Assembly (NCBI GenBank): GCA_023131895.1
Contig: JAGLYZ010000001.1
Location: 8,957 to 72,956, forward strand
Direction of reading: 5' to 3'
From: Candidatus Parcubacteria bacterium
GTDB lineage: Bacteria > Patescibacteriota > Minisyncoccia > Minisyncoccales > JAGMDC01
Length of the DNA stretch: 64,000 nt
The notes beneath the pieces are model-generated. The model was not told where the DNA came from, did no database searches, and saw only the letters and a list, made by a program, of their open reading frames with translations. Of this stretch, positions 1,169 to 39,085 are shown piece by piece. Both the position numbers and the translations under genes were made by a program. Within the stretch, counting starts at the first letter, position 1; each line of letters begins with the position of its first letter.

Positions 1169-2107
1169 ATGAAAAGTGTAAAAGCAATACTTTTAATAGG
1201 TGTTTTAATATTTGTAGGAATAACAGGATTAGTTTTAGCTTTTCAGGTTAATGCTCAAGCAACAGGTATTACTATTTCTCCTTTAACTTTTGAATTGACA
1301 GCAAATCCAGGAGATGTGATTTCAAACAAGCTTAAGGTTTATAATCCAACTGACAGCACTATTGGCATAAAAATGGAAGTAGAGGATTTCAGGCCGGTTG
1401 GTGAAACAGGTCAGGTAATAGTCAGCCCTGAAGAGGAAGTAACTTATTCTTTAAAAAGATGGGTGGAAACAATACCTCCTGAATTTACTTTAAAACCAAG
1501 AGAACAGAAGTTTGTTGATTTTACTATAAATGTTCCGGAAAATGCTGAGCCAGGAGGACATTATGGTTCAATTTTAGCTTGTGTAACTGGAGCTATAGGC
1601 GAAGAAGTTACTGGAGTAGCATTGACTCAAAAAGTAGGAGGTTTGATTTTGTTAATGGTTTCAGGAGAATTAAAAGAAGAGTTAATTGTTAAAGAATTTT
1701 CATCTCCTTCTTTTTTAGAATACGGACCAGTGCTGTTCACTATTAGGTTTGAGAATAAAGGAACTATTCATGTACGGCCAAAAGGTTTTGTAACTATTAG
1801 CGACTGGCGCGGGAAAAAAGTAGCTGATGTTGCTTTTCCGCAAAACAATGTTATTCCAGGAGCAATAAGAAAAATTGAGGCTTCTTGGGATAAAAAATGG
1901 TTAGTAGGCCGCTATACTGCCACATTAGTAGGCAGTTACGGCACTGCTAATGTTCCGTTTAATCCGCCTGTCTTAACTTTCTGGGTTTTTCCTTGGAAAT
2001 TAGGTTTAGGCGCTTTGATAGCTTTATTAATAATAATGATTTTCTTTTATAAAACCAGAAAAAGGTGGAGATTGGCAATGAGAATATTAGTTAAAGGAGA
2101 ACAATAA
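1169..2107 (+). CDS. DUF916/DUF3324 (CscA)-like cell-surface protein with signal peptide and C-terminal TM anchor
   Basis: N-terminal signal (LIGVLIFVGITGLVLAFQVNAQA). Two beta-sandwich-like halves (ISPLTFELTANPGDVISNKLKVYNPTD...; FTLKPREQKFVDFTINVPENAEPGGHYGSI; FTIRFENKGTIHVRPKG). C-terminal TM (LGLGALIALLIIMIFFY) followed by KTRKRWR. Confidence 0.6.
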   Translation: MKSVKAILLIGVLIFVGITGLVLAFQVNAQATGITISPLTFELTANPGDVISNKLKVYNPTDSTIGIKMEVEDFRPVGETGQVIVSPEEEVTYSLKRWVETIPPEFTLKPREQKFVDFTINVPENAEPGGHYGSILACVTGAIGEEVTGVALTQKVGGLILLMVSGELKEELIVKEFSSPSFLEYGPVLFTIRFENKGTIHVRPKGFVTISDWRGKKVADVAFPQNNVIPGAIRKIEASWDKKWLVGRYTATLVGSYGTANVPFNPPVLTFWVFPWKLGLGALIALLIIMIFFYKTRKRWRLAMRILVKGEQ

Positions 2108-2131
2108 TTTCTGAATCAATATTAAAAATGA

Positions 2132-3085
2132 ATGTTTTTTTTAAAGAAAAAGAAAAACCAAGAAATAGAGCTTGAAAAAAGAAAAAAAGATTTTTTTTCA
2201 CGGTTTTGTTTAACATATAAAGCCGTTTTTTTATTTTCAATTACATTTTCTATTTTATTATTTGCTTTTTCATTTTGCCAAGCCCTTGATCCAATAGAGG
2301 AAGGCATAAGTATTTCTGCAGTTGTAGAAGGCGTTGCTCCTCCTCCCTCTGCTGGAGGAGGGCCTATATTGCAATCCACAGTTGTTTTTAATGGAAAAGC
2401 ATATCCTGGAGCTTTAGTCACTATTTTAAGAAATGGCTCAATAGCTTCAACTTTAACAGCTGATTCTTCTGCTGAGTTTTCAGCAACCTTAACTGGAATT
2501 CCGTCTGGCTTTAGGATTTTTTCGCTTTGGGCTGAAGATAAAGAAGGGAAAAAATCACCAACTCTAAGTTTTAGTGTTTATTTAACAAACAGAACAAGCA
2601 CTACTTTTGCTGGATTATTTTTGGCACCGACTATTAATTTGAGTTCCTTTGAGATTTCTAAAGGAGAAGTTTTGGATATATACGGTTATACTGCTCCAAA
2701 AGCTGAAGTTAATATTTTTATCAATAATGGTTCAGAAGAAATTGTTTTGAGGACTAAATCTGATACTGATGGATTCTGGCTTTATTCGCTTGATACTTCT
2801 ATAATAAAAAAAGCAGGTTATTCGGTTAGAGCAAGATCAACATCTTCTACAGGAGAGATTTCAATGTTCTCCGAGTCTTTAGATTTTGAAGTTCTACCTG
2901 AAGGAATTGCTGTTTGCTGCGGAGCTGACATAAACTGCGATAACAGAATAGATATTGTTGATTTTTCAATTATGCTTTTCTGGTGGGAGTCAAAAGAAAT
3001 TAAAGACCCCTGCGTTGACATTAATTTAGACAATGAAGTAAATCTTGTTGACTTTTCCATTATGCTTTATTACTGGACAGGGTAA
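2132..3085 (+). CDS. Secreted protein with a C-terminal type I dockerin-like duplicated Ca-binding repeat
   Basis: Hydrophobic N-terminal segment ending ...FSFCQA. The C-terminus carries two tandem segments, DINCDNRIDIVDFSIMLFWW and DINLDNEVNLVDFSIMLYYW, matching the D-x-N-x-D-x-x-(I/V)-(D/N)-x-x-D-F pattern of dockerin F-hand repeats. Confidence 0.7.
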   Translation: MFFLKKKKNQEIELEKRKKDFFSRFCLTYKAVFLFSITFSILLFAFSFCQALDPIEEGISISAVVEGVAPPPSAGGGPILQSTVVFNGKAYPGALVTILRNGSIASTLTADSSAEFSATLTGIPSGFRIFSLWAEDKEGKKSPTLSFSVYLTNRTSTTFAGLFLAPTINLSSFEISKGEVLDIYGYTAPKAEVNIFINNGSEEIVLRTKSDTDGFWLYSLDTSIIKKAGYSVRARSTSSTGEISMFSESLDFEVLPEGIAVCCGADINCDNRIDIVDFSIMLFWWESKEIKDPCVDINLDNEVNLVDFSIMLYYWTG

Positions 3086-3110
3086 TTTAATTAAAAGTTT
3101 AAAGTTAAAA

Positions 3111-4283
3111 ATGCAAAGTTATAATTCAAAATTAAAAATTTCTTATTTTCTGATTTTAGTTTTTAGCTTTTCATTTTTAGTTTTTAATTATTGCCAAGCG
3201 GCGGTGTTTTATTTAATGCCTCAAGCGCAAACTGTTTATCAGGGCGATTCTTTTATTGTTGAAATAAGATTAGACACTGAAGAAGAAGAAATAAATACTG
3301 TTAAAGCAAATTTGATATTTCCTTCTGATTTGTTAGAAGTTGTTGATATTAATAAAGGAGGTTCTATATTGGCTCTTTGGCCTGAAGAGCCGGATGTTTC
3401 TAATAATGAAATATATTTTCTTGGAGGCGTTCCGGGCGGATTTAAAGGAGATGGAATAATTGCCAGAGTTATTTTTACAGGAAAAGAAATTAGCGGGGCA
3501 GAAGTTAGCTTTAAAGAAGCTTGCCATGTTTTATTAAATGACGGGCATGGCACTTCAGCTGATTTGAGTTTGCTTGGAGCGAGTTATGACATTATTGAAA
3601 AAACACAAGCTTGGCCGCTTATTTTTTCAACTACTCATCCAGACCAAAACAAATGGTCAAAATCAAGCACATTTCATATTCATTGGGATTTAGTTGAAGA
3701 AGCCGAATATAGTTATCTTTTAAGCCAGGACTCTTTGGCTGAACCTGATAATATTCTTGATAAGCCGGAAGGAGAATTGGTTTGGATGGGCGATATGAAG
3801 TATGTTGGTTTGGAAGACGGAATTTATTATTTTACTTTAAAGCAGAAAGACCCTGACCAGAGTTGGTCAGAGAAAATCACTTACAGGGCAATGATTGATT
3901 CTGCTGCTCCTGAAGAATTTAGTTTAAAGATTGCTCAAGACCAGAGTCTATTTGAAGAAAAATACTTTTTAAATTTTTTTACCACTGACAAGGGTTCAGG
4001 CATAGATTATTACAAAATAAAAGAAGGCAAAAGAGATTGGAAAACAATAAGCAGCCCTTATTTATTAGAAGACCAAGGACTACAGAGCATTATAAAAGTA
4101 GCAGCAGTAGATAAGGCTGGAAATGAAAGAATAGCAGAATATCTACCTTCAGAGACAAAGAAACTATTCCCTTGGCAGATAATTATTTTGATTCTGGCTG
4201 TGATTGGAGTAATTTGGTTGATTATTAAAAGAATTAGCGCGAAACCACTCGAAACAAAGACGCGAAACCACACAAAAGTTTAG
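3111..4283 (+). CDS. Membrane-anchored cohesin-like domain surface protein, paralogue 1
   Basis: I prefer the ATG at 3111 (MQSYNSKLKISYFLILVFSFSFLVFNYCQA signal) to the upstream 3045 start, which overlaps the previous gene. Cohesin-like module (VYQGDSFIVEIRLDTEEEEINTVKANLIFPSDLLEVVDI...GGVPGG...ARVIFTGKE...VLLNDGHGT), THPDQNKWS module, DGIYYF module, SGIDYY Ig-like module and C-terminal TM. Confidence 0.7.
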   Translation: MQSYNSKLKISYFLILVFSFSFLVFNYCQAAVFYLMPQAQTVYQGDSFIVEIRLDTEEEEINTVKANLIFPSDLLEVVDINKGGSILALWPEEPDVSNNEIYFLGGVPGGFKGDGIIARVIFTGKEISGAEVSFKEACHVLLNDGHGTSADLSLLGASYDIIEKTQAWPLIFSTTHPDQNKWSKSSTFHIHWDLVEEAEYSYLLSQDSLAEPDNILDKPEGELVWMGDMKYVGLEDGIYYFTLKQKDPDQSWSEKITYRAMIDSAAPEEFSLKIAQDQSLFEEKYFLNFFTTDKGSGIDYYKIKEGKRDWKTISSPYLLEDQGLQSIIKVAAVDKAGNERIAEYLPSETKKLFPWQIIILILAVIGVIWLIIKRISAKPLETKTRNHTKV

Positions 4284-4317
4284 CGTAGTTTAGCGTAAAG
4301 TTTAGCGTAGTTTAGCG
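4238..4317. repeat. Paralogue-junction element 1: cgcgaaac-type x3, then agtttagcg x4 (mutually complementary arms)
   Basis: cgcgaaac at 4238 and 4261, tcgaaac at 4249 (within ctcgaaac at 4248). gtttagcg at 4278, 4288, 4300 and 4310 (spacing 10/12/10). It spans the stop codon of paralogue 1. Confidence 0.8.
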
Positions 4318-4323
4318 ATTTTA

Positions 4324-5529
4324 ATGGAGAGATTGTTTTCTATATTATTTATCTTAATACTTTTTTTTATTATTCCATTCTCGGTTTCTGGGGCTTCGGC
4401 TTCGCTTTATCTTTCACCTTCTTCGGGAAGTTTTTTGGTAGGAAGCACTTTTACTGTTTCTATATTTTTAGATACTGAAGGAAATGACATAAACGTGGTT
4501 TGGGCAGAGTTAAAGTTTAATCCGGAAATTTTACAGATTACTTCGCCAACTGCTGGCAATTCTTTTATTTCTGAATGGATATTGCCTCCGAATTATTCAA
4601 ACAAAAAAGGGATAATAAGTTTCAGGGGAGGCATACCAGAAGGAATTAGCACTTCAGCAGGACTGGTTTCTTCTGTCGCTTTTCGGGCAAAGGCCTCTGG
4701 CACTGCAAAAATTGAGTTTACAAAAGAATCCAGAGTTCTTTTAAACGATGGAAAAGGCACGAATGTTCTTACTAATAAAATTAACGGAGAATATCAGGTT
4801 TTAATTCCAATGCCAGAGGGTCCAGTTGTTTTTTCTCCCACTCATCCGAGTCCAAATGTTTGGTATTCTGATTCAAGCCCGGCTTTTAGTTGGGAAAAAG
4901 AGCAAGGAATAAGTGATTTTTCCTGGAGTTTTGATGAAAATCCAAAGAGCAGGCCAGACACTAAAGGAGAAGGAATCCAAACAATGGCATCTTTTTCCGA
5001 TATAGAGGATGGAATTTGGTATTTTCATTTAAGGCAAAATAAAAAAGGAATTTGGGGCAAGACCTCTTCTGCGGCAGTGAGAATTGACACTAATCCTCCA
5101 AAGGAATTCTTTCCGAGAGTTGAAACATATTCACGTTTAGTTGGATATCAGACAATGGTTTATTTTGAGACAATTGATAATTTTTCAGGCATTGACCATT
5201 ACGAAGCAAGTATTATTGATTTAAGCTCTTCAGAATCTTTTCGTTCTTTTTTTTCTGAAGAAATAAGCCCTTATCGGGTTCCTTTTAAAAAAGCAGGCAA
5301 GTATAATGTCATTATAAAAGCAATAGACAGGGCTGGAAATATTAGAGAAAGCGAGGCCCGGTTTCGGATAATGACTCCTTTGATATCCCATATTGAAGGC
5401 AATGGATTGCAAATTAAAGGAGTTTTTTTACCTTGGTGGTTGATGGGATTTTTATTATCTTTTATAATTTTAGGACCAGTATTAATTGTTTGGTGGTTCT
5501 GGAAAAGATACCAGAAGTACACTCAATGA
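4324..5529 (+). CDS. Membrane-anchored cohesin-like domain surface protein, paralogue 2
   Basis: Same architecture as paralogue 1: signal peptide, ASLYLSPSSGSFLVGSTFTVSIFLDTEGNDINVVWAELKFNPEILQI..., THPSPNVWY, DGIWYFHL, SGIDHY and a C-terminal TM. Confidence 0.75.
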   Translation: MERLFSILFILILFFIIPFSVSGASASLYLSPSSGSFLVGSTFTVSIFLDTEGNDINVVWAELKFNPEILQITSPTAGNSFISEWILPPNYSNKKGIISFRGGIPEGISTSAGLVSSVAFRAKASGTAKIEFTKESRVLLNDGKGTNVLTNKINGEYQVLIPMPEGPVVFSPTHPSPNVWYSDSSPAFSWEKEQGISDFSWSFDENPKSRPDTKGEGIQTMASFSDIEDGIWYFHLRQNKKGIWGKTSSAAVRIDTNPPKEFFPRVETYSRLVGYQTMVYFETIDNFSGIDHYEASIIDLSSSESFRSFFSEEISPYRVPFKKAGKYNVIIKAIDRAGNIRESEARFRIMTPLISHIEGNGLQIKGVFLPWWLMGFLLSFIILGPVLIVWWFWKRYQKYTQ

Positions 5530-5547
5530 ATTTAATCCATCAATAGA

Positions 5548-5646
5548 CACTAATGACTAAACCACTAAAAAACACTAATATTAGACCAATAGGCACTAAA
5601 TATAAATTATTAGTGTTGATTAGTTTTATATTAGTGTGTATTAGCG
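5548..5646. repeat. Paralogue-junction element 2: cactaa-type x5, then ttagtg-type x4 (complementary arms)
   Basis: cactaa at 5548, 5563, 5573 and 5594, plus actaaa at 5556. ttagtg at 5610 and 5631, ttagtt at 5620, ttagcg at 5641. It spans the start codon and signal-peptide codons of paralogue 3. Confidence 0.8.
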
Positions 5647-6899
5647 GGCTGCCTTCTGTAGCAGAAGGAGCTGGCGCTTCTTTGTATTTTTCGCCAGGAA
5701 GCGGCACTTTTTTTATTGGAAGCACTTTTGATATTTCTATTTTTATCAACACAGGAGGCAATAATGTTAATGCTGTAAAAGTTGATTTAAAATTTGATCC
5801 AAAAAAACTGCAAATAGCCAGTCCAACAGCTGGAAAGTCATTTATTGCTGTTTGGGTTGCCCAGCCCGCTTATTCCAATATTGAAGGCACGGCTTCTTTC
5901 CAGGGAGGAGCGCCTTCTCCAGGAATTAATACTTCTTCTGGCTTAGTATCTACTATTACTTTCAGAGCTATTAGTCCGGGTGAAACCAGTATTTATTTTG
6001 CAGATTCTTCCAAGGTTCTTTTAGACGACGGTAAAGGAACCGACATTTTAACATCTTTAGGAAAAGGAGCTTATACATTAACTATTCCTCCGCCAGAAGG
6101 CCCTAAGATATTTTCCCATACACATCCTGACCAAAATAAATGGTATAAAAATAATACCCCGAATTTTAGCTGGGAAAAAGCAGAAATGGTAAATGCTTTT
6201 AGCTATAATATGAGCCGCAATTATTATGATGAACCAGATAATGTTTCTGAGGGGGAGCATAGTTCAATTTCTTTTGCTGATTTAGAAGATGGAATATGGT
6301 ATTTTTCTATAAAAGCAAGGCAAGGCGAACTTTGGGGCGGGATTAGCAGATATATTGTTCAGATTGATAAAAGCGCGCCAGCAAGTTTTGAACTCGTGTT
6401 TGATCCCGTGCTGCGTTCCCCGGTTTCTGTTTCTAAAGAACCAATAATTAGATTTATTACCACTGATGCGCTTTCAGGGCTTGAGCATTATACGTTAAAA
6501 CATATTGATTTGACTGGCAAAGAGAAAAAAGAAGGTTTTTTTGTGGAAGTGAGCAGTCCGTATAGAATGCCTGAGCTTGCCTTAGGAGAACATGAAATAA
6601 TAATTAGGGCTTTTGACGCAGCTGGCAATTATCAAGACAGTGCGGAGAAAATTGAAGTTATCCCGACTGAACAATTATTTTATGTTTCAAAAAATGGAAT
6701 AAATATTTTCAGCATTTTTATTTCTTGGTGGAAACTGATTTTAATCCTTATTATTATTCTAATTCTGATTTTGATATGTACATTTTTGTGGTGGCGCAAA
6801 AATAAGCGTTTAGAGCGAACAAAAAAATATCTCATAGGGGTTAAGGGAGAAGCAGAGAAAAATAGAGAGGAAATTAAAAGAAAATTAAATGGCATATGA
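5553..6899 (+). CDS. Membrane-anchored cohesin-like domain surface protein, paralogue 3
   Basis: ASLYFSPGSGTFFIGSTFDISIFINTGGNNVNAVKVDLKFDPKKLQI..., THPDQNKWY, DGIWYFSI, SGLEHY, a TM segment and a short basic/acidic tail. Its stop overlaps the next start (ATGA at 6896-6899). Confidence 0.75.
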   Translation: MTKPLKNTNIRPIGTKYKLLVLISFILVCISGLPSVAEGAGASLYFSPGSGTFFIGSTFDISIFINTGGNNVNAVKVDLKFDPKKLQIASPTAGKSFIAVWVAQPAYSNIEGTASFQGGAPSPGINTSSGLVSTITFRAISPGETSIYFADSSKVLLDDGKGTDILTSLGKGAYTLTIPPPEGPKIFSHTHPDQNKWYKNNTPNFSWEKAEMVNAFSYNMSRNYYDEPDNVSEGEHSSISFADLEDGIWYFSIKARQGELWGGISRYIVQIDKSAPASFELVFDPVLRSPVSVSKEPIIRFITTDALSGLEHYTLKHIDLTGKEKKEGFFVEVSSPYRMPELALGEHEIIIRAFDAAGNYQDSAEKIEVIPTEQLFYVSKNGINIFSIFISWWKLILILIIILILILICTFLWWRKNKRLERTKKYLIGVKGEAEKNREEIKRKLNGI

Positions 6900-8635
6900 T
6901 CACTAAACACATACAAAACCCATACACTAAACAGACACGAAACCTTTTACTTGGTGTCGGTTTAGTGTTTTGTTTAGTGTGGGTTTCTTGTTTTCTGCCT
7001 AGCGAAGCGAAGGCAGAAAGTGCTTCGCTTTTTCTTACACCTGCAAGCCAAAGCCTTGAAACAGGAGAGAGATTTTCAATGGAGGTAAATGTAGACACTG
7101 GCTCTATTCCTATTAATGCCGGACAGGCAATTATTCATTTCCCATATGATACATTAGAGATTGTCAGTATTTCCAAAGAAAATTCTATATTTTCTTTTTG
7201 GCCGGAAGAGCCGGTTTTTTCTAATTCAACAGGTGAAATTTCGTTTGTTGGCGGATTGCCTACGCCTGGCTTTACAGGAATAGGAAATTTAATTACTGTT
7301 GAATTTAAAGCAAGACAATTAGGTGTTTCAAATCTTACTTTCGGTGATGCCAGGGTTTTAGCTGACGACGGCAAAGGAACCAATGTTTTAGTTTATCTTA
7401 AAAGCGCCAAATATTTTATTCTTGAAAAAATAACTCTTTCTGGAAAAGAACCAGAAGCAGCTTTGCCTCAAATTTTTTCTCTAACTCATCCTCAAGAAGA
7501 CGAATGGTATAATAATAATTCCCCTTCTTTCAAATGGAATTTAACCCCTGGTATTACTGATGTTAGTTTTGATTTAAACCAAAAACCAGAAGCCATGCCT
7601 GATACAGTTTCTGAAGGCATAAAGGAATTTAAAAAGTATGAAAAAGTTTTAGATGGTATTTGGTATTTTCATTTAAGTTCAAAAGATGAAACAGGATGGT
7701 TGGAGCCTGTGCATTATAAAATTCAGATTGATACTACGCCGCCTAACCTTTTTGAATTGGTGATTGATAATGCCGGAGATCCTACTAATCCAAAGCCCAG
7801 TATTTATTTTGAAACCAGTGATGCTGCTTCAGGAATAAAGAATTATAAGCTTAAAATTGGACAAGGAGATTTTTCTAATTTAATGCTTGCGCAAATAAAT
7901 CCTGTTTTTTTATCGCTTCAAGATCCAGGCAGCCGTGAAATTATAGTAAGAGCTGTAGATAAAGCTGGAAATTCTGTTCAAGCTGAATCTTTTATTAATA
8001 TAGAATCTATTGAATCTCCTGAAATTAATGTCTGGCCCAAGAAATATATTGCAGGAGAAGAAGTGTTCTATATTGAAGGCAAATCCTTGCCTAATGCAGA
8101 AATTACAATTTTTTTAAAAAAAGACAATAAAGAAATTAGAAAATGGCAAACCATTAGCAACAATCAAGGAGAATGGTCTTTTTCAACAAGAGAATTCTTA
8201 AAATCCGGTAATTATTCCTTATCTGCTCTGGCTCAAGACAACAGGGGAGCAATAAGTGATTTTTCTGATGCAAAAGAAATAGAAATATTTTTCAGCGGGC
8301 TTTTTTTTGGACCATTAATGGTTTCTTTTAAAACATTGGTTCTATCCTTATTTTTAGTTTTGTGTTTAGGAATTATTATATTTGCTTATTTCTTTTATAA
8401 AAATCGTTTGGCTAAAAGAGTATTAATAAAAGAAACATGTGAAGCAAGAGAAATTCTTAAAGAAAATTTTGATTCCTTAGGAAAAGAAATAGAAAAGCGG
8501 ATTGAGATGGCTGATAATCAGCCTGGATTTAGTGAAGCGGAAAAAGATGTTTGTGAAAATATTAAAAAAGCGCTCAAAACCACTAAAAAGAAAATAGAAA
8601 AAGAAATTAAAGACATTGAAAGAGAGCTAAAATAA
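6896..8635 (+). CDS. Membrane-anchored cohesin-like domain surface protein, paralogue 4, with an extra beta domain and a cytoplasmic coiled-coil tail
   Basis: ASLFLTPASQSLETGERFSMEVNVDTGSIPINAGQAIIHFPYDTLEI..., THPQEDEWY, DGIWYFHL and SGIKNY. There is an additional ~100-aa domain before the TM. After the TM comes a ~75-aa K/E-rich tail (KEIEKRIEM...KKKIEKEIKDIERELK). Confidence 0.75.
   Translation: MITKHIQNPYTKQTRNLLLGVGLVFCLVWVSCFLPSEAKAESASLFLTPASQSLETGERFSMEVNVDTGSIPINAGQAIIHFPYDTLEIVSISKENSIFSFWPEEPVFSNSTGEISFVGGLPTPGFTGIGNLITVEFKARQLGVSNLTFGDARVLADDGKGTNVLVYLKSAKYFILEKITLSGKEPEAALPQIFSLTHPQEDEWYNNNSPSFKWNLTPGITDVSFDLNQKPEAMPDTVSEGIKEFKKYEKVLDGIWYFHLSSKDETGWLEPVHYKIQIDTTPPNLFELVIDNAGDPTNPKPSIYFETSDAASGIKNYKLKIGQGDFSNLMLAQINPVFLSLQDPGSREIIVRAVDKAGNSVQAESFINIESIESPEINVWPKKYIAGEEVFYIEGKSLPNAEITIFLKKDNKEIRKWQTISNNQGEWSFSTREFLKSGNYSLSALAQDNRGAISDFSDAKEIEIFFSGLFFGPLMVSFKTLVLSLFLVLCLGIIIFAYFFYKNRLAKRVLIKETCEAREILKENFDSLGKEIEKRIEMADNQPGFSEAEKDVCENIKKALKTTKKKIEKEIKDIERELK
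6901..6985. repeat. Paralogue-junction element 3: cactaaac x2 plus cgaaacc, then gtttagtg x2 (complementary arms)
   Basis: cactaaacacatacaaaacccatacactaaacagacacgaaacc ... ggtgtcggtttagtgttttgtttagtgtgggttt. It lies in the first ~30 codons of paralogue 4. Confidence 0.8.
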
Positions 8636-8678: not shown

Positions 8679-9911
8679 ATGAATAAAGAATCTGTCTCAA
8701 TTTTTAGCATTTTAGCCAATATCTTTTTAGGGATTAGCAAATTAGTGATTGGTTTGATGATTAACAGCGCTGCTTTGGTTGCTGATGGTATCCATTCAGC
8801 TACTGATTTTGTATCTTCTTTAGGTGTTTTTATTGGAATTAAAATTGCTAAAAAACCAGCTGATAAAGAGCATCCTTATGGCCATTATGCTGCAGAAACC
8901 TTAAGCGGGTTAGGCGTGGTTCTTCTTTTAATTCTTGCAGGCATATGGATTATGTATGATGGAGTAGGAAGTATTCTGAATAAAAATATTATTCAATTAA
9001 GTTCAATAGGAATTATAGTCGTTGTTTTTTCCATATTTTTAAATGAGGCAATGGCTCGTTTGAAATTAAGATACGGCCGCAAGGAGAATTCTCTGGCTTT
9101 AATTGCTGATGCCGAGCATTCGCGCGCTGACGCTATTTCTTCAGTTGGTGTTTTAATTGGCTTATTGATTGCTTCTTTGGGTTCAGGTTATTTTTTATAT
9201 GCAGATGGATTGATTGCTATTTTTATTGGTATGTATATTTTAAAAGAAAGCTATAAATTAGGCAGGGAAGTAGTTGATAATTTATTAGGAGTAAGGGACG
9301 AGAAAACTGAGGAAATGATTAAAGAATATTGTAAGCAAAAAAATATTTCTTTAATTGGTTTAAAAACGCGGAAAATTGGGCCAGTGATTTCTGCAGAAAT
9401 CACTATTAAATTAGACGCTCGTTTAAAAGTAGAGGAAGCAGAAGGGGTCTCTAAAAAATTACAAAATGATTTATTGGCCAAAATCAAAAATTTAAAATAT
9501 GTGGTTATTCAGGTTGAATCGCATAAAACAAGGCAGGGATTTATTAGGCAAAGATGGGGTAGAAGGATTGATTTTCGCGAGCGATTTAAACCATTAGGTC
9601 CGGAAAAGAAAGGTTATAGAATAGTCATTCCTTTTAAAGATGGAAAATTCTATTCAGATTTTGGAGCGCCGGAATATTTAGTGGTAGATCGCGAAGGCGG
9701 TCGCGCTAGCCGCATTTTAGAAAAACAAATCGTGGAAAATCCATTTTTCGCAGAAGGTATTGGCGGCGGTATGCGGTTTATTAAATCGCTTAATCCAGAT
9801 GAAGTTATTACTCAAAAAATAGGTCCAGGCGCTACAGAAAGATTAAAAGAATTAGGAATTAAGCTGACCATCATTAAAGACGAAAACGAAATAAAAGAAT
9901 TTTTACCCTGA
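8679..9911 (+). CDS. Cation diffusion facilitator (CDF) transporter fused to a C-terminal NifX/NifB-like (dinitrogenase FeMo-cofactor family) domain
   Basis: CDF hallmarks: HSATDFVSSLGVFIG, KPADKEHPYGHYAAE, HSRADAISSVG and a cytoplasmic ZT-dimer-like region. A ~115-aa extension (YRIVIPFKDGKFYSDFGAPEYLVVD ... GGGMRFIKSL ... VITQKIGPGATERLKELGIKLTI) resembles the PF02579-type fold. Confidence 0.7.
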   Translation: MNKESVSIFSILANIFLGISKLVIGLMINSAALVADGIHSATDFVSSLGVFIGIKIAKKPADKEHPYGHYAAETLSGLGVVLLLILAGIWIMYDGVGSILNKNIIQLSSIGIIVVVFSIFLNEAMARLKLRYGRKENSLALIADAEHSRADAISSVGVLIGLLIASLGSGYFLYADGLIAIFIGMYILKESYKLGREVVDNLLGVRDEKTEEMIKEYCKQKNISLIGLKTRKIGPVISAEITIKLDARLKVEEAEGVSKKLQNDLLAKIKNLKYVVIQVESHKTRQGFIRQRWGRRIDFRERFKPLGPEKKGYRIVIPFKDGKFYSDFGAPEYLVVDREGGRASRILEKQIVENPFFAEGIGGGMRFIKSLNPDEVITQKIGPGATERLKELGIKLTIIKDENEIKEFLP

Positions 9912-9950: not shown

Positions 9951-9980
9951 GGGCGTTTATACGTCCTTTTTTTTGTTTTC
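9951..9980 (+). terminator. Rho-independent terminator after the CDF gene
   Basis: gggcgt-ttat-acgtcc stem-loop (one G-U pair) followed by an almost uninterrupted T-run (ttttttttgtttt). Confidence 0.7.
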
Positions 9981-9989
9981 AAAAAAATG

Positions 9990-10004
9990 TGATATAATAC
10001 CATA
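9990..10004 (+). promoter_or_regulatory. Extended -10 (TGaTATAAT), N6, then the ATG of the SdpI-like gene; leaderless-type start
   Basis: tga 9990-9992, tataat 9993-9998, spacer accata, ATG at 10005. It follows the terminator at 9951-9980. Confidence 0.55.
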
Positions 10005-10649
10005 ATGAGAAAAACAGAAATTATTGCCTTAGGGATTATTTTAATATCATTTTTGATTGGCATTTATTTTTATAACAGGATGCCAGATATGATGGCTTCG
10101 CATTGGAATGCAAGAGGCGAAGTTAACGATTATATGTCCAAATTCTGGGCTTTGTTTTTAATGCCTTTAATGTCTTTGGGATTGTTTTTACTTTTTCTTG
10201 TGGTTCCTAAAATTGATCCATTAAAACAAAATATTGAAAAATTCAGAAAATACTTTGATACATTTATTGTCTTGATGCTCGGCTTTCTGTTTTATATTTA
10301 TCTTTTAACTATTTTTTGGAATCTTGGCATTAGATTCAGTATGATACAACTGATGATTCCAGCTATGGCTGCTTTATTTTATTACTGCGGAATTTTAGTA
10401 GAAAATGCCAAAAGAAACTGGTTTATTGGCATTAAAACTCCCTGGACATTGAGTAATGAAAATGTCTGGAATAAAACTCACAAACTGGGCGGTAAACTGT
10501 TTAAAAGTGCTGGCATAATTATTCTTTTAGGGATTGTCTTGGAAAGTTATGCTCCATATTTTGTTTTGGTTCCAATACTTTTTGTCAGTATTTATTTAGT
10601 TGTCTATTCCTATCTTGAATATCAGAAAGAAATAAAGATAAAGAAATGA
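10005..10649 (+). CDS. SdpI/DUF1648 family membrane protein
   Basis: The N-terminus FYNRMPDMMASHWNARGEVNDY is DUF1648-like. NWFIGIKTPWTLSNENVWNKTHKLGGKLF matches the SdpI signature. About 6 TM segments. A 4-nt ATGA overlap joins it to the next gene. Confidence 0.75.
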   Translation: MRKTEIIALGIILISFLIGIYFYNRMPDMMASHWNARGEVNDYMSKFWALFLMPLMSLGLFLLFLVVPKIDPLKQNIEKFRKYFDTFIVLMLGFLFYIYLLTIFWNLGIRFSMIQLMIPAMAALFYYCGILVENAKRNWFIGIKTPWTLSNENVWNKTHKLGGKLFKSAGIIILLGIVLESYAPYFVLVPILFVSIYLVVYSYLEYQKEIKIKK

Positions 10650-12178
10650 GCATTAAAATATTAAAAAAAACAATATCTGTTTGTCCTGAATGTTTTAGAG
10701 CAGGGAAAATTAAGAAAATAGACGCTCAAATTATTGAGGAGGAAGGAAAGGTGTGGATGAGAAAAGAGTGTTCCATACATGGTGTTTTTAAGTCAATATA
10801 CTTCAGTTCTCCAGAGCTTTATCGCAAATGGATGAAGTATCAAGCAGATGGCAGAGGGGTTGAAAATGTAGAGATTAAAAGCCTGCCTGATTCGCATTTT
10901 CTTTATCCAAAGCATTTTTCCCAAACAGTTCTGACAAATTTAATGGTTACCAACAGATGCAACCTAAGGTGCAGCTACTGCTTTATGAATGCCGGAGCCG
11001 CCGGTTATATTTATGAGCCGTCTTTAGAGATGCTGAAAAAGATGATGCAGGCAGTAAGATTAGAAAAACCTGTGCCCTCAAAGGCGCTGCAGATCACCGG
11101 TGGTGAGCCAACAATTAGAGATGATTTAATAAAGATTATCAAAATAGCTAAAAATATGGGCTTTGTTCATGTCCAGTTGAACACCAATGGCATACGGCTT
11201 TCTGAAGAGCCGGAATATTGTCAAAAGATTAAAAAGGCAGGAGTAAATACTATTTATATGAGCTTTGACGGAGTTTCAAAGCAAACCAACCCTTGGATAG
11301 AAGAAAATAAAAGAGCAATAGAGAATCTAAGAAAAGCAGGCATAGGCGTTGTTTTGGTTCCCACTGTTATCGCTGATTCCAATCTTCAAGAAGCAGGAGA
11401 GATTGTTAAATATGCCATAGAAAATATTGATATAGTAAGAGGGGTTAATTTCCAGCCCATTTCTTTTTGCGGAAGGGCAGGATTTGTGCCTGATGAGGTT
11501 AGAAAAAGAAAAAGAGTTGATTATGTAAAACTTTTTGAGGTCTTGGAGGATTCTTTTGGAGGACAAATAACAAGAGATGATTTTTATCCTGTACCCTTCG
11601 TTTATCCAATATCAAAATTAGTAGAAAGGCTAAGGGGTGAGCCCCAAGTTGAATTTACTGCTCACCCAGGCTGCGGCGGAGCAACTTATGTATTTGTTAA
11701 GAATGGGAATTTAGTGCCAATAACTAGATTTATTAATGTAGAGAGGCTAAGGAAGTTCATTGAAGAGCAATTAGAAAAATCAGGACCATTTTACAGGGCA
11801 AGAGTGACTGCTCTTTTTATCAAAAATATTTCTCAATTTATTAATCAAAATAAAGTGCCAGAAGGTTTAGATATTAAAAATATTTTAATAAGCGCTATTA
11901 CCAGAGGTCAATATAAATCATTGGGTAAATTCCATCACGAAGCCCTTTTTATCGGTTCAATGTGGTTTCAGGATGTTTGGAATCTTAATCTGGAACGGTT
12001 GAAAAGATGCGTTATTCATTATTCTACCCCGGAAGGCATAGTGCCTTTTTGCGCTTATAATGGTTTGGGATATGGCGATGAGATTCGTAAGAGGCATTCT
12101 ATGTCTGTGAAAGAATGGGAGGAAAAAACCGGCAGAAAAATGGAAGACGATCTTTGGAAAAACGGCCCTGTATCATAA
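10646..12178 (+). CDS. Radical SAM enzyme, MJ0619/tetraether-lipid-synthase (Tes/GDGT-MAS)-like architecture
   Basis: CNLRCSYCF is a CxxxCxxC radical SAM motif. N-terminal Cys/His knuckle (CPECF ... ECSIHG). GGEPT motif. Additional conserved Cys residues (HPGCGG, RCVIHY, PFCAYN). At 510 aa it matches the size of the archaeal MJ0619 family. The radical SAM call is solid; the subfamily call is from memory only. Confidence 0.6.
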   Translation: MSIKILKKTISVCPECFRAGKIKKIDAQIIEEEGKVWMRKECSIHGVFKSIYFSSPELYRKWMKYQADGRGVENVEIKSLPDSHFLYPKHFSQTVLTNLMVTNRCNLRCSYCFMNAGAAGYIYEPSLEMLKKMMQAVRLEKPVPSKALQITGGEPTIRDDLIKIIKIAKNMGFVHVQLNTNGIRLSEEPEYCQKIKKAGVNTIYMSFDGVSKQTNPWIEENKRAIENLRKAGIGVVLVPTVIADSNLQEAGEIVKYAIENIDIVRGVNFQPISFCGRAGFVPDEVRKRKRVDYVKLFEVLEDSFGGQITRDDFYPVPFVYPISKLVERLRGEPQVEFTAHPGCGGATYVFVKNGNLVPITRFINVERLRKFIEEQLEKSGPFYRARVTALFIKNISQFINQNKVPEGLDIKNILISAITRGQYKSLGKFHHEALFIGSMWFQDVWNLNLERLKRCVIHYSTPEGIVPFCAYNGLGYGDEIRKRHSMSVKEWEEKTGRKMEDDLWKNGPVS

Positions 12179-12206: not shown

Positions 12207-12240
12207 AACGGCGGAGGCAAAATTTGACGCCGTTTTTTTA
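12207..12240 (+). terminator. Rho-independent terminator after the radical SAM gene
   Basis: aacggcg ... cgccgtt 7-bp stem with a 14-nt loop, followed by tttttt. Confidence 0.55.
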
Positions 12241-12263
12241 TCGGAGTAAAATGGAATAATATC

Positions 12264-16644: not shown

Positions 16645-16659
16645 TGCTATAATTATTAA
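16645..16659 (+). promoter_or_regulatory. Extended -10 (TGcTATAAT), N6, then the ATG of the GH1 gene; leaderless-type start
   Basis: tgc 16645-16647, tataat 16648-16653, spacer tattaa, ATG at 16660. Confidence 0.55.
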
Positions 16660-27503: not shown

Positions 27504-28703
27504 ATGGAAAACAAGCTTTGGAAAACCAATAAACTTATTTGTGGGGATAATTTAGAGGAGTTAGCTAAACTTCCTAAAGAGAATGTGGATTTAATTTACA
27601 TTGACCCACCATTTTTTACCCACAAACAATATGAGGTTGTCTGGGGTGATGAAGCAGAAGTTAGAAGTTATAGGGATAGATGGGAGGGCGGAGTAGAACA
27701 TTACATTGGTTGGTTAAAACCGAGAGTTCAAGCGATGTATGAAATACTGAAACCTACTGGTTCTTTTTATATTCACTGCGACTGGCACGCTAATGCTCAT
27801 ATAAGAATTATGTTAGATGAAATTTTTGGGCCAGAGAATTTTCAAAATGAGATAGTTTGGGCTTATAGAATTCAAGGTGTTGGTAAAAAAAGATGGGCAA
27901 GGAAACACGATAGCATTTTTTTCTACTCAAAAACAAAAAATTATATTTTTAATCCACAAAAAGAGAGATTGCGATATAAAAAATCATTTTATGATGCAAA
28001 AAAGGACAAAGAAGGATATTATAGAGATGTTTATATAAGAGATATTTGGGACGATATTAACGCTTTAATAAGTATATCAAAAGAGTTAGAAGGTTATCCT
28101 ACCCAAAAACCAGAGGCACTTTTAGAGAGAATAATAAAAGCGTCTTCAAATAAAAGCGATATAGTGTTAGATGCTTTTTGTGGTTGTGGGACAACAATGG
28201 CTGCAGCTCAAAAATTAGGTAGAAGATGGATAGGGATAGATATATCACCGACAGCCATTAAAATAATAGAACGCAGGCTAAAAAAGAATTTAAAAACAAT
28301 AGAGGGTATCAATTACGAGGTGATTGGTATGCCCACTACGGTAGAGGAAGTGAAAAAGTTAGAGCCTTTTGAATTTCAAAACTGGGTAGTGATAGATAAA
28401 ATGAGAGCCAATGCAAGCAGAAAAAAGGTAGGAGATATGGGGTTAGATGGTTATTATCCTGAAAGCATTTTAACCAAATCAGCAGGAATACAAGTAAAAC
28501 AATCTGATGGAGTGGGACGTAATATTGTAGATAATTTTGAAACTGCACTTAAAAGAGCGGATTATAAAAAAGGTTATATCGTAGCTTTTAGTTTTAGCAA
28601 GGGTGCTTATGAAGAAGTAGCACGGATTAAAAACAAAGAAGGATTAGAAATAAAATTGATTACAGTCAAGGATTTATTGGAAAAGAAAAAACCAATAATT
28701 TAG
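27504..28703 (+). CDS. Beta-class N6-adenine (or N4-cytosine) DNA methyltransferase fused to a C-terminal Mrr-cat/PD-(D/E)xK nuclease-like domain
   Basis: Motif IV DLIYIDPPF precedes motif I DAFCGCGTT, which is the beta-class order. The C-terminal ~120 aa (FEFQNWVV...GDMGLDGYY...GIQVKQSDG...GYIVAFSFSKGA) fits the restriction-endonuclease (Mrr_cat) pattern. Confidence 0.8.
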   Translation: MENKLWKTNKLICGDNLEELAKLPKENVDLIYIDPPFFTHKQYEVVWGDEAEVRSYRDRWEGGVEHYIGWLKPRVQAMYEILKPTGSFYIHCDWHANAHIRIMLDEIFGPENFQNEIVWAYRIQGVGKKRWARKHDSIFFYSKTKNYIFNPQKERLRYKKSFYDAKKDKEGYYRDVYIRDIWDDINALISISKELEGYPTQKPEALLERIIKASSNKSDIVLDAFCGCGTTMAAAQKLGRRWIGIDISPTAIKIIERRLKKNLKTIEGINYEVIGMPTTVEEVKKLEPFEFQNWVVIDKMRANASRKKVGDMGLDGYYPESILTKSAGIQVKQSDGVGRNIVDNFETALKRADYKKGYIVAFSFSKGAYEEVARIKNKEGLEIKLITVKDLLEKKKPII

Positions 28704-37348: not shown

Positions 37349-39085
37349 ATGAAGACAAATAATTCAGTAAAAATATTTTTTGTTGGATTGGCGTTTTGCC
37401 TTTCTCCTTTTTTTGTTTCAGCTGACTATATTGGCCAAAACATTGATTTTTTTATTGATTCTTTATATGATTCGCAAGAAAGAGACCAGATTTCAGCCAC
37501 TTTGCGAGAGAGAAGCTCCCAGCTTTATTTTTATATTGACGACCAATACTGGAACCAGTTGAATGATGTCCAAAAACAGGAAAAGAGAAAAAAGTTAGAT
37601 GTATTAGCAGAAGAGTTTGAAGAACAGATTTATCCATTAATGACTCCAACTTTTGGCATAGAATGGAACACAGGAATTGATAATGACGGGCATATTACAG
37701 TGCTAATTCATAAGATGATTAATGATATAGCCGGTTATTTTAATGCTGGAGATGAGTATGAAAAAGCCCTGGTGCCAGCATCAAATGAAAGGGAAATGGT
37801 ATATCTTAGCTCTGATTTTATTGACAGCGCGAATCTAAAAGGTTTTTTGGCGCATGAATTTATGCATTTAATCACTTTTAACCAGAAAGATAACAGCTAT
37901 GGAATTTCTGAAGAAATATGGCTCAATGAAGCAAGGGCTGACCATACTTCCACTTTTTTGGGCTATGATGATGAGTATGAAAACAGCAATTTGTCCGCAA
38001 GAGTAAGAAGTTTTTTAAACTCTCCTGGCGATTCTTTGACAGAATGGCTTAATGAAAAATCTGACTATGCGGTTGTCAATCTTTTTACCCAATACTTGGT
38101 TGACCATTATGGTATAAAGATTTTAGTTGATTCGCTTACCTCGTCAAAAACAGGCATTGCCTCTTTAAACTATGCTTTGGAAAAAAACGGTTTTGACAAG
38201 GATTTTTCAGATGTATTTACTGACTGGACAATTACTGTTTTAATCAATGATTGTGAGCTCGGAGAAGAGTATTGTTATTTAAATGATAATTTAAGAAATT
38301 TAAAAATCTCACCCCGTATTATTTTTCTTCCTAAAAAAGGCGAGACAACTCTTTCTGTAAGTGATACCACTAAGGATTGGGCAGGGAACTGGCATAAGAT
38401 TATTGGAGGCAAAGATGCTTTAAAAGTTGAATTTGAAGATAATTCAGGGACTAATTTAATAGTGCCTTATTTGATAGAGTCAACAGATGATGAGTTTTCT
38501 ATTGGTTTTATTGAATTTGACGATGATAACAAAGCTGTTCTTTATGTTTCTGATTTCGGGACAAAGAATAAATCATTATTTCTTCTTCCTTCAGTCCAGG
38601 AAAAAACAGCCGGTTTTAACGGCGAAGAGGATTCCTATAAATATTCTTTTACTTTGTCAACAGTAAAGAGAACACCGGAGCAGGAAGAAGCAGAATTAAG
38701 GCAGGCGCTTCTTGCACAAATTGCTGAATTACAAGCTCAAATTGCCATGATTCAGGCAAAAATAAATGCTATTTTAGCAGAGAGAAATAAAAATGAATAT
38801 AACCAAACCTGCCAAAACATAGAAAACAATCTTTCCTTCGGCTTTCTGGACAACAATGAAGTGAGCTGCCTTCAAGAGTTTTTAAAATCACAGGGCCAGG
38901 ATGTTTATCCGGAAGGGTTGGTCACAGGCAATTTTCTCTCTCTAACAAAAAAAGCGGTTATCCGCTTTCAAGAAAAATATAAATCAGAGATATTGGAACC
39001 GCTTGGCTTGGAAAATGGAACTGGTTTTGTCGGTTCTTCCACGCGCGCAAAAATCAATGAATTGTTAAATAGGCAGGGTTCTTAG
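37349..39085 (+). CDS. Secreted HExxH zinc-metallopeptidase-like protein with coiled-coil and C-terminal PG-binding domain
   Basis: Signal peptide, LAHEFMHLITF (HExxH), LRQALLAQIAELQAQIAMIQAKINAIL, and PG_binding_1-like VSCLQEFLKSQGQ...TKKAVIRFQEKY. Confidence 0.65.
   Translation: MKTNNSVKIFFVGLAFCLSPFFVSADYIGQNIDFFIDSLYDSQERDQISATLRERSSQLYFYIDDQYWNQLNDVQKQEKRKKLDVLAEEFEEQIYPLMTPTFGIEWNTGIDNDGHITVLIHKMINDIAGYFNAGDEYEKALVPASNEREMVYLSSDFIDSANLKGFLAHEFMHLITFNQKDNSYGISEEIWLNEARADHTSTFLGYDDEYENSNLSARVRSFLNSPGDSLTEWLNEKSDYAVVNLFTQYLVDHYGIKILVDSLTSSKTGIASLNYALEKNGFDKDFSDVFTDWTITVLINDCELGEEYCYLNDNLRNLKISPRIIFLPKKGETTLSVSDTTKDWAGNWHKIIGGKDALKVEFEDNSGTNLIVPYLIESTDDEFSIGFIEFDDDNKAVLYVSDFGTKNKSLFLLPSVQEKTAGFNGEEDSYKYSFTLSTVKRTPEQEEAELRQALLAQIAELQAQIAMIQAKINAILAERNKNEYNQTCQNIENNLSFGFLDNNEVSCLQEFLKSQGQDVYPEGLVTGNFLSLTKKAVIRFQEKYKSEILEPLGLENGTGFVGSSTRAKINELLNRQGS

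Follow-up and report, generated by a model that had tools for sequence, protein, structure and literature searches.

A variant member of the tetraether lipid synthase (Tes) family, probably with three metal sites, encoded by a Parcubacteria bacterium

Tes family membership

A 64,000-nucleotide (nt) stretch of DNA from Candidatus Parcubacteria bacterium, referred to here as the window, encodes at positions 10646 to 12178 a 510-amino-acid (aa) radical S-adenosylmethionine (SAM) protein (GenBank MCK4520256.1; plus strand, as are all features of this locus given below). Judged by family profiles and a structural model, this protein belongs to the tetraether lipid synthase family, also called Tes or GDGT-MAS (glycerol dialkyl glycerol tetraether [GDGT]-macrocyclic archaeol synthase). 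It appears to be a variant member, as one defining cofactor site is missing and the host is unexpected. We lean toward regarding it as a functional Tes family enzyme that was acquired from anaerobic archaea by a lineage of the candidate phyla radiation (CPR; Parcubacteria/Minisyncoccales/"Nealsonbacteria") and is maintained under purifying selection.

The protein was matched by the NCBIfam equivalog for tetraether lipid synthase Tes (NF045702) with 577.8 bits (cut-off, 450) over profile positions 1 to 485 of 486. Scores of the CPR and archaeal relatives tested ranged from 545 to 639, and the Methanocaldococcus jannaschii enzyme scored 744. A first-pass annotation of this DNA had assigned the protein to the MJ0619/Tes subfamily on motif patterns and had named better homology to another radical SAM subfamily as an outcome that would speak against the assignment. 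The assignment was borne out, with NF045702 as the best NCBIfam match, above its cut-off, and Protein Data Bank entry 7TOL (M. jannaschii GDGT-MAS) as the best structural match. The runner-up family, the TrsS radical SAM (seleno)protein (NF045646), reached 306.6 bits, below its cut-off of 490, and its best stretch covered only residues 8 to 315. Entry 7TOL was also the only close solved relative (E value, 1.7e-125; residues 6 to 496), and the window protein is 43.8% identical to the M. jannaschii enzyme. An AlphaFold2 model built from 42 homologues had a predicted local distance difference test score (pLDDT) of 91.3 and a predicted template modeling (TM) score of 0.91. In Foldseek comparisons, this model matched 7TOL and 7TOM with TM scores of 0.89 to 0.92 and root mean square deviations of 2.5 to 2.9 Å, and the next fold, MoaA, scored 0.35.

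The ratio of nonsynonymous to synonymous substitution rates (dN/dS) of the Tes gene was 0.07 to 0.09 in comparisons with close relatives, among which Tes was conserved at least as well as neighboring housekeeping genes. This ratio, together with the intact catalytic residues described below, ruled out a pseudogene or relic. The protein has no transmembrane segment (maximum KD19 score, 1.2). In GenBank, it is labeled only as a "radical SAM protein," although it scores above NCBI's current Tes equivalog cut-off. Two relatives (P0094 and P0315) are still publicly annotated as "7,8-dihydro-6-hydroxymethylpterin dimethyltransferase," the withdrawn assignment of MJ0619.

Metal sites and catalytic residues

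Ligand assignments of the M. jannaschii enzyme were taken from Lloyd et al. 2022 (PMC9433317), and the corresponding window residues were identified by alignment. The Cys/His knuckle and the CNLRCSYCF cluster motif pointed out in the first-pass annotation can both be read directly from the translation, as C13-P-E-C16-F with E-C42-S-I-H45-G and as C105-NLR-C109-SY-C112-F, respectively. The rubredoxin-like site is kept, with C13, C16, C42, and H45 corresponding to C9, C12, C33, and H36 of the M. jannaschii enzyme, and is part of a rubredoxin-like zinc-ribbon domain (aa 5 to 53; positions 10658 to 10804; Pfam PF23545, Zn_ribbon_HMPTM, 1.2e-16). The radical SAM motif, C105-x3-C109-x2-C112, is encoded at positions 10958 to 10981 (Pfam PF04055, 7.9e-28). 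In the C-terminal auxiliary [4Fe-4S]C domain (positions 11672 to 12052), C343, M439 (the labile Met ligand), C455, Y459, and C469 align with C338, M439, C455, Y459, and C470 of the M. jannaschii enzyme, and all five are invariant in the 42-sequence alignment. Likewise, the residues in contact with SAM or 5'-deoxyadenosine (5'-dA) are kept: G153, Y204, D208, V238, Q270, S273, and R277 correspond to M. jannaschii G145, Y195, D199, V236, Q268, S271, and R275.

The fourth metal site differs. In the segment equivalent to the N-terminal auxiliary [4Fe-4S]N site (N-cluster; aa 80 to 90; positions 10883 to 10915), L80, H84, and Y87 replace C73, C77, and C80 of the M. jannaschii enzyme, and H90, the equivalent of H83, is kept. 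Of the several further conserved Cys residues claimed in the first reading, C343, C455, and C469 therefore stand, whereas the N-cluster equivalents of C73, C77, and C80 are gone. The number of metal sites in the window enzyme is thus probably three instead of four. AlphaFold2 confidence is lower over aa 80 to 90 (pLDDT, 77 to 81), and Y87 is near-invariant and H90 invariant within the subclade of relatives that lack the N-cluster. In the M. jannaschii enzyme, this cluster is surface exposed, and a role in redox tuning and electron transfer has been suggested (PMC9433317). As the cluster is lost in the subclade, electron delivery must differ from that in the solved enzyme.

A subclade of Tes without the N-terminal cluster

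The N-cluster Cys residues were absent from all of the 120 nearest homologues (58 to 92% identity). When 1.84 billion representatives were searched, the whole radiation around the window protein fell into a single cluster at 50% identity, and the Tes family as a whole comprised 370 clusters of 50%-identity representatives at an E value of ≤1e-30. About 93 of 104 full-length 50%-cluster representatives keep C73, C77, and C80 plus the His in the alignment, and the subclade without the N-cluster was monophyletic with respect to the cluster-keeping representatives in 100 of 100 neighbor-joining (NJ) bootstraps. The radiation holds thousands of sediment-derived sequences. Its named members are known only from metagenome-assembled genomes (MAGs) and belong to Thermoplasmatota, Aenigmarchaeota, MSBL1, Hadarchaeota, "Thermococci," Parvarchaeota, and CPR bacteria. 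A second homology search, with a Thermoplasmatales MAG protein as the seed, returned uncultured sequences only.

Across the subclade, the residues linked to catalysis (those of [4Fe-4S]C, Met439, Tyr459, and the SAM contacts) show little or no variation. Our literature search found no paper on archaeal-type Tes in CPR bacteria or on a Tes subclade without the N-terminal cluster. A very large uncultured sediment subclade without one of the four cofactors bears on the question of which cofactors C(sp3)-C(sp3) coupling needs.

Bacterial host of the window Tes

The contig that contains the window (DAOVNT010000001.1; assembly GCA_030630045.1) is 266 kb long and comes from a Parcubacteria/Minisyncoccales MAG. 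The first-pass annotation had spoken of a bacterial homologue, and the host of the window Tes is indeed a bacterium of the CPR (Parcubacteria/Minisyncoccales): genes for ComEC, ClpB, and HtrA lie in the window, and those for MurB, SecA, and SecDF lie just outside it on the same contig. The window also encodes NrdD, NrdG, and a DNA methylase and contains a large cluster of polysaccharide genes. Tes was found at 74 to 93% identity in five CPR MAGs (Nealsonbacteria, Parcubacteria, and Minisyncoccales) on contigs of up to 176 kb, and the gene arrangement recurs in independent MAGs and metagenomes, including on contigs of 169 and 176 kb. In a more distant relative (L019; 72% identity), Tes adjoins genes for RF-1, ribosomal protein L25, and a lytic transglycosylase. 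The GC content of the Tes gene (0.36) equals that of its surroundings. A mis-binned or contaminating archaeal contig was ruled out by the bacterial genes on the 266-kb contig, the recurrence in independent assemblies, and the match in GC content. As nrdDG adjoins Tes, the host can be regarded as an anaerobe, which suits an O2-sensitive enzyme.

Phylogeny and origin

CPR clade 1, to which the window protein belongs, was monophyletic together with P0005 (from a 2.8-kb contig) in 100 of 100 NJ bootstraps. The nearest group in the NJ tree (sister relation in 32 of 100 bootstraps) comes from an archaeal context with genes for Pelota, eRF1, CarS (CDP-archaeol synthase), Rpb6, and FEN1, and the named relatives at 57 to 65% identity are archaeal. 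As the CPR clade lies inside a mostly archaeal subclade, Tes likely moved from archaea into CPR bacteria, a direction that we infer from this nesting.

Mobile-element genes were observed near Tes in CPR clade 1 (L006:3813-6239, L019:2777-5200, L002:2655-3506, and L022:1830-2549, the L numbers denoting loci of relatives). These include a gene for a VirD4/TraG-like coupling protein about 0.5 to 2 kb downstream of Tes in the relatives at 72 to 74% identity (L006 and L019) and IS200-type transposase genes upstream of Tes in L002 and in the window's own contig. It is possible that such genes are vehicles or traces of Tes transfer.

A second CPR lineage carries Tes in one conserved gene string, represented by L007 ("Saccharibacteria"), L016/L017 ("Nealsonbacteria"), L030, L031, and L032 and counted as five loci. 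The string consists of genes for FtsZ, a nucleotidyltransferase, a carbohydrate kinase, a TrxR-like protein, GT2/enolase, a polyprenyl synthase, and Tes, continuing with miaA on the opposite strand and then with genes for MiaB, threonyl-tRNA synthetase, and DnaE. The polyprenyl synthase-Tes pair is located at L007:4866-7530, L016:6857-9530, L030:5957-8521, L031:5863-8521, and L032:5862-8521, and the L016 and L007 Tes proteins are 57% identical to each other. For the 340-aa polyprenyl synthase, the best models were archaeal short-chain IdsA and geranylgeranyl diphosphate (GGPP) synthase, below their cut-offs. A Tyr residue was read at position -5 of its first DDxxD motif, which is typical of C20-limited prenyl synthases. 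The conserved adjacency of a GGPP-synthase-like gene would tie CPR Tes to isoprenoid rather than acyl lipids; this tie is circumstantial and concerns a lineage other than that of the window. Two genes downstream of Tes in L016, after miaA, an archaeal-type PurP (formate-dependent FAICAR synthetase; DUF1246/DUF1297) is encoded at 10535-11683.

Proposed function and alternatives

From homology to the M. jannaschii enzyme (PMC9433317 and a 2026 preprint), we infer the following chemistry and substrate. The CX3CX2C cluster would cleave SAM to give a 5'-dA radical, which would take a hydrogen atom from the terminal carbon of a lipid tail lying in a hydrophobic tunnel. The C-terminal [4Fe-4S] cluster, with its three Cys ligands and labile Met, would hold the resulting lipid radical in the form of a C-S adduct. 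A second SAM-derived radical, generated on a second tail, would then attack the adduct to form a C(sp3)-C(sp3) bond, and the product would be a membrane-spanning or macrocyclic lipid.

By analogy, the substrates are most likely mature, saturated isoprenoid diether phospholipids of the archaeol type. Tes accepts saturated archaetidylglycerol as a substrate, its head-group binding is unspecific (PMC9433317), and it yielded GDGT in Escherichia coli engineered with an archaeal lipid pathway (PMC12042123). As Tes performs the final step, on completed polar lipids and with unspecific binding of the head groups, a bacterium that lacks lipid synthesis would need no more than one gene. CPR bacteria have been reported to be without lipid biosynthesis, and Nealsonbacteria, Minisyncoccus, and Yanofskyibacterium are found living on methanogens, to which the first two attach; a single tes gene would thus suffice to convert diethers scavenged from an archaeal host or neighbor. 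GGGPS and DGGGPS have also been reported from one Parcubacteria genome (PMC7852524).

Several observations weigh against an archaeal-type Tes activity acquired in this way. The three [4Fe-4S]N Cys residues lost in the window protein are kept by about 90% of the wider family representatives. The subclade contains no characterized member and none that is cultured among about 240 listed relatives, and the activity of the window enzyme is extrapolated from an M. jannaschii enzyme that is about 44% identical. No isoprenoid or archaeal-lipid gene was found in the 64-kb window plus about 20 kb of flanks (about 10 kb at each end; about 84 kb altogether). The tree backbone is weak, with the sister group recovered in 32 of 100 bootstraps, and it fixes neither the donor nor the number of transfers. 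Furthermore, the M. jannaschii enzyme also binds bacterial phosphatidic acid, so that acyl lipids may also be substrates (PMC9433317), and GDGT was toxic to E. coli (PMC12042123). Finally, "Candidatus Nealsonbacteria" DGGOD1a grew on E. coli lysate, which speaks against a requirement for such lipids of archaeal origin in this strain.

This last observation fits the main alternative, in which the same chemistry is applied to a bacterial substrate and the tails of fatty-acyl or alkyl glycerolipids are coupled. Such lipids would be obtained by scavenging from bacteria or through synthesis by the partial FAS/PlsY/PlsC set of some Nealsonbacteria, in which fatty acid and phospholipid genes are near-complete (PMC7242380). 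The products would be membrane-spanning lipids of the diabolic acid type or similar to branched GDGTs (brGDGTs); such a role has been suggested for Tes homologues of acidobacteria and demonstrated for the unrelated enzyme Mss. The host is a bacterium, Zeng et al. propose such a role for bacterial Tes homologues and point to the resemblance of iso-branched acyl termini to phytanyl termini (PMC8941075), and the M. jannaschii Tes holds dipalmitoyl-phosphatidic acid in both pockets (PMC9433317). However, the window protein is 57 to 65% identical to archaeal enzymes and nested among them, whereas the bacterial homologues linked to brGDGTs are just 28 to 42% identical to the archaeal MA_1486 (PMC8941075). 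Moreover, the available portions of the M. jannaschii and E. coli studies report no product from bound E. coli lipids, and Tes of the second CPR lineage adjoins a short-chain prenyl-diphosphate synthase gene rather than acyl-lipid genes. On this evidence, we regard coupling of acyl or alkyl tails as doubtful, but as an explanation to be taken seriously.

A diverged paralogue is a more distant prospect, which we consider improbable. The subclade without the N-cluster might have turned to pterin methylation or to another radical modification of a lipid or hydrophobic substrate, given that it has lost one of four metal sites, is monophyletic (100 of 100 bootstraps), and has no characterized member, and given that some sources name relatives as 7,8-dihydro-6-hydroxymethylpterin dimethyltransferases. 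The pterin assignment of MJ0619 was, however, withdrawn on structural grounds (PMC9433317). All catalysis-linked residues vary little or not at all within the subclade, and the protein scores above the cut-off of the NF045702 equivalog. A CDP-archaeol synthase gene is located 2.3 kb from one archaeal member, and the CPR members of the second lineage adjoin the GGPP-synthase-like gene. In addition, CPR bacteria are not known to make methanopterin, which also counts against a pterin-modifying paralogue.

Carrying the archaeal-type reading further, we tentatively suggest that at least two lineages of Minisyncoccia might use an archaeal-derived Tes with three metal sites for the formation of isoprenoid tetraether or macrocyclic lipids. 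The diethers would be stolen in the window lineage and supplied by an own prenyl pathway in the second lineage. This broader proposal is held with less than even confidence.

Association of Tes with an SdpI-like gene

Directly upstream of Tes, positions 10005 to 10649 encode a 214-aa SdpI-like membrane protein (GenBank MCK4520255.1), the stop codon of which overlaps the Tes start codon in an ATGA at positions 10646 to 10649. Both open reading frames (ORFs), their coordinates, and the overlap are exactly as described in the first-pass annotation. The SdpI-like protein was matched by Pfam DUF1648 (PF07853; 1.7e-19, 69.7 bits) and SdpI (PF13630; 1.5e-18, 67.1 bits), passing the gathering score for both. 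Hydropathy indicated about six hydrophobic segments, in agreement with a multi-pass protein, and the earlier call of a six-transmembrane SdpI/DUF1648 protein thus agrees with both domains and topology. The dN/dS of the SdpI-like gene was 0.13 to 0.17 in comparisons with close relatives.

The gene pair is flanked by a terminator-like structure on each side, as had been claimed. Upstream, an intrinsic-terminator-like hairpin followed by a T-run (positions 9951 to 9974; stem, 9951 to 9966) ends the CDF transporter gene (8679 to 9911). It was found both by the terminator scan and by folding, with a free energy of -9.8 kcal/mol (z = -3.8) that was equaled by none of 200 shuffles. Downstream, a terminator-like hairpin, ACGGCGG...CCGCCGT, with seven T residues (positions 12207 to 12241; hairpin, 12207 to 12234) lies between the Tes stop codon and nrdD (12276). 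It was detected by folding (-14.2 kcal/mol; z = -2.0 against shuffles) and missed by the simple terminator scan because its 14-nt apical region, which is partly paired, exceeds the 8-nt loop limit.

A promoter had also been proposed for the pair, and this claim holds in part. Sigma-70-like promoter matches were not enriched in the region scanned (8 versus 10 expected from shuffles), but a perfect extended -10 box, TGATATAAT, is present at positions 9990 to 9998, 6 nt 5' of the SdpI-like ATG. A second perfect extended -10 box (TGnTATAAT) at positions 16645 to 16653 is likewise 6 nt 5' of an ATG (16660). The extended -10 motif count in the window (7 versus 5.5 expected) showed no excess, so it is by position only that the box at 9990 to 9998 stands out. 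The 6-nt spacing at both boxes suggests a leaderless or very short-leader transcript.

Synteny was surveyed at 20 Tes loci from genomes and metagenomes, with SdpI sought within ±6 kb of Tes. SdpI was found upstream of Tes only at Tes identities of at least 89% (89 to 93%; L002 to L004 and L023), and these relatives share the whole neighborhood, including the CDF transporter, nrdDG, and comEC. The junction between the two genes varies among them: the ATGA overlap is present in the window and L004, a 47-nt spacer with a terminator-like hairpin in L002 and L003, and a 540-nt gap with a 144-aa membrane ORF in L023. Insertions upstream of SdpI in relatives comprise pyrimidine genes (PyrD, PyrF, and a PRTase-like ORF), an IS200 transposase gene, and a gene for a DUF92 protein. 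The last of these, at L002:777-1538 on the minus strand, 4 kb upstream of SdpI-Tes, encodes a membrane protein of the family of the plant VTE6 phytyl-phosphate kinase (TIGR00297, 127 bits, below the cut-off) and is absent from the window. In the ±6-kb interval around Tes, no SdpI was present in L005 and L019 of CPR clade 1, in L007 and L016 of the second lineage, or at nine archaeal loci (L008 to L015 and L018). The upstream side of L006 fell outside the survey, as its contig ends 240 nt before Tes. Tes is instead accompanied by genes for RelA/SpoT, an MFS fragment, and PolX in L005 (in the 72 to 76% identity range) and by the VirD4-like coupling protein gene in L006 and L019, followed at a greater distance by genes for NYN in L006 and for FBPase and DeoC in L019.

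In the first-pass annotation, the two-gene operon was taken to connect the enzyme with a membrane partner. Such a dedicated module might serve for membrane recruitment, lipid hand-over, or sensing of or protection against the product. The ATGA overlap and the terminators on both sides in the window, as well as the gene order repeated in L002 to L004 and L023, would be in line with it, as would the need of a Tes without transmembrane segments for access to membrane lipids. However, the pairing is confined to relatives of at least 89% identity with a common neighborhood, which is synteny by descent; it is interrupted by the hairpin spacer in L002 and L003 and by the extra ORF in L023; and it is absent from the diverged CPR and archaeal loci. 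Furthermore, characterized Tes enzymes function without such a partner. The link to a membrane partner was therefore not upheld: a dedicated module is quite unlikely and, by synteny, largely refuted, and the pairing is best explained by recent shared ancestry, with the SdpI-like gene as a lineage-specific neighbor and no functional module.

Other features of the window

Nearly all window genes are on the plus strand, and the GC skew is positive throughout; the sole long minus-strand gene encodes a Wzy_C/TPR protein (positions 39065 to 41371). The 64 kb contain no tRNA gene and no Rfam match at the gathering score. The CDF cation-efflux transporter upstream of SdpI-Tes carries a C-terminal domain resembling the FeMo-cofactor-binding fold of dinitrogenase (PF02579; E value, 1e-4, below the gathering score). 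A single ORF at positions 27504 to 28703 fuses an N6/N4 DNA methylase to an Mrr-type restriction endonuclease domain.

Positions 1169 to 8635 and, upstream of the window, L022:1-9880 encode a run of large proteins of the secreted or surface type that gave weak matches to Cohesin, Big_13, Big_6, and WxL-interacting domains. ORFs of 2,766 and 1,644 aa just outside the window belong to the same run, which may be the attachment machinery of an episymbiont.

The anaerobic ribonucleotide reductase locus beside Tes is a hotspot of selfish elements (L002:7620-11021 and L003:9754-12235). NrdD is 1,133 aa in close relatives versus 701 aa, suggesting an intein-like insert, and in another relative nrdD and nrdG are separated by two ORFs, one of which encodes a NUMOD3/LAGLIDADG homing endonuclease.

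Implications

GDGTs are treated as archaeal signatures and form the basis of palaeotemperature proxies and of the "lipid divide" between bacteria and archaea. Distant bacterial Tes homologues have been known since 2022; here, a clearly archaeal-type enzyme is strongly conserved in CPR bacteria, and some bacteria may thus build or remodel archaeal-style membranes. The class Minisyncoccia contains proven parasites of methanogens. If our reading is true, a parasite with a single acquired gene could turn the bilayer lipids that it steals into lipids of the monolayer type. No bacteria before these would have had membranes of the GDGT type, and they would be an unrecognized bacterial source of "archaeal" isoprenoid GDGT biomarkers in anoxic sediments.

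Comparison with known systems

The SdpI-like protein has the Pfam pair PF13630 and DUF1648 and the multi-pass topology in common with SdpI/YfhL of Bacillus subtilis. The B. subtilis SdpI has an immunity and signaling role, which is not implied for the window gene. In contrast to the B. subtilis SdpI locus, the window has no sdpABC or sdpR-like neighbors, and the flanking genes encode the CDF transporter and Tes.

The membrane-spanning lipid synthase Mss from Thermotoga and Thermoanaerobacter (Sahonero-Canavesi et al. 2022; PMC13159169) resembles Tes in being a radical SAM enzyme for tail-to-tail lipid coupling that is anaerobic and occurs in many candidate phyla. However, it acts on fatty acyl chains and belongs to a separate radical SAM lineage. 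Tes as a BLAST query does not detect Mss (PMC13159169), and the two are thus not close relatives. In a Black Sea survey, it was Mss, not Tes, that was found, in 3 of 428 Patescibacteria MAGs.

Homology to the M. jannaschii GDGT-MAS (MJ0619; 7TOL and 7TOM; PMC9433317) extends over the full length, and both proteins share the four-domain fold, the CX2C...CX2H site, the CX3CX2C cluster, the three C-terminal Cys residues with Met439, Tyr459, and the SAM-binding residues. Unlike that enzyme, the window protein is without C73, C77, and C80, comes from a CPR bacterium rather than a methanogen, and is a putative synthase. MA_1486 of Methanosarcina acetivorans and Saci_0703 of Sulfolobus acidocaldarius are, among others, genetically verified archaeal Tes that convert archaeol-type diethers to GDGT, glycerol trialkyl glycerol tetraether, and macrocyclic archaeol (PMC8941075). 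They share the NF045702 family with the window protein and probably differ from it in keeping the N-cluster, as about 90% of the family representatives do.

Bacterial Tes homologues were noted by Lloyd et al. (PMC9433317), and Zeng et al. counted 456 of them, with CPR among the groups searched and no CPR-specific discussion in the available portion of that paper (PMC8941075). Those from Acidobacteria and other bacteria, proposed for brGDGT synthesis, are likewise Tes family genes in bacteria and candidates for the production of membrane-spanning lipids. In contrast to these homologues, with their 28 to 42% identity to MA_1486, the window protein reaches 57 to 65% identity to archaeal proteins, falls inside an archaeal subclade, and is encoded by a CPR host.

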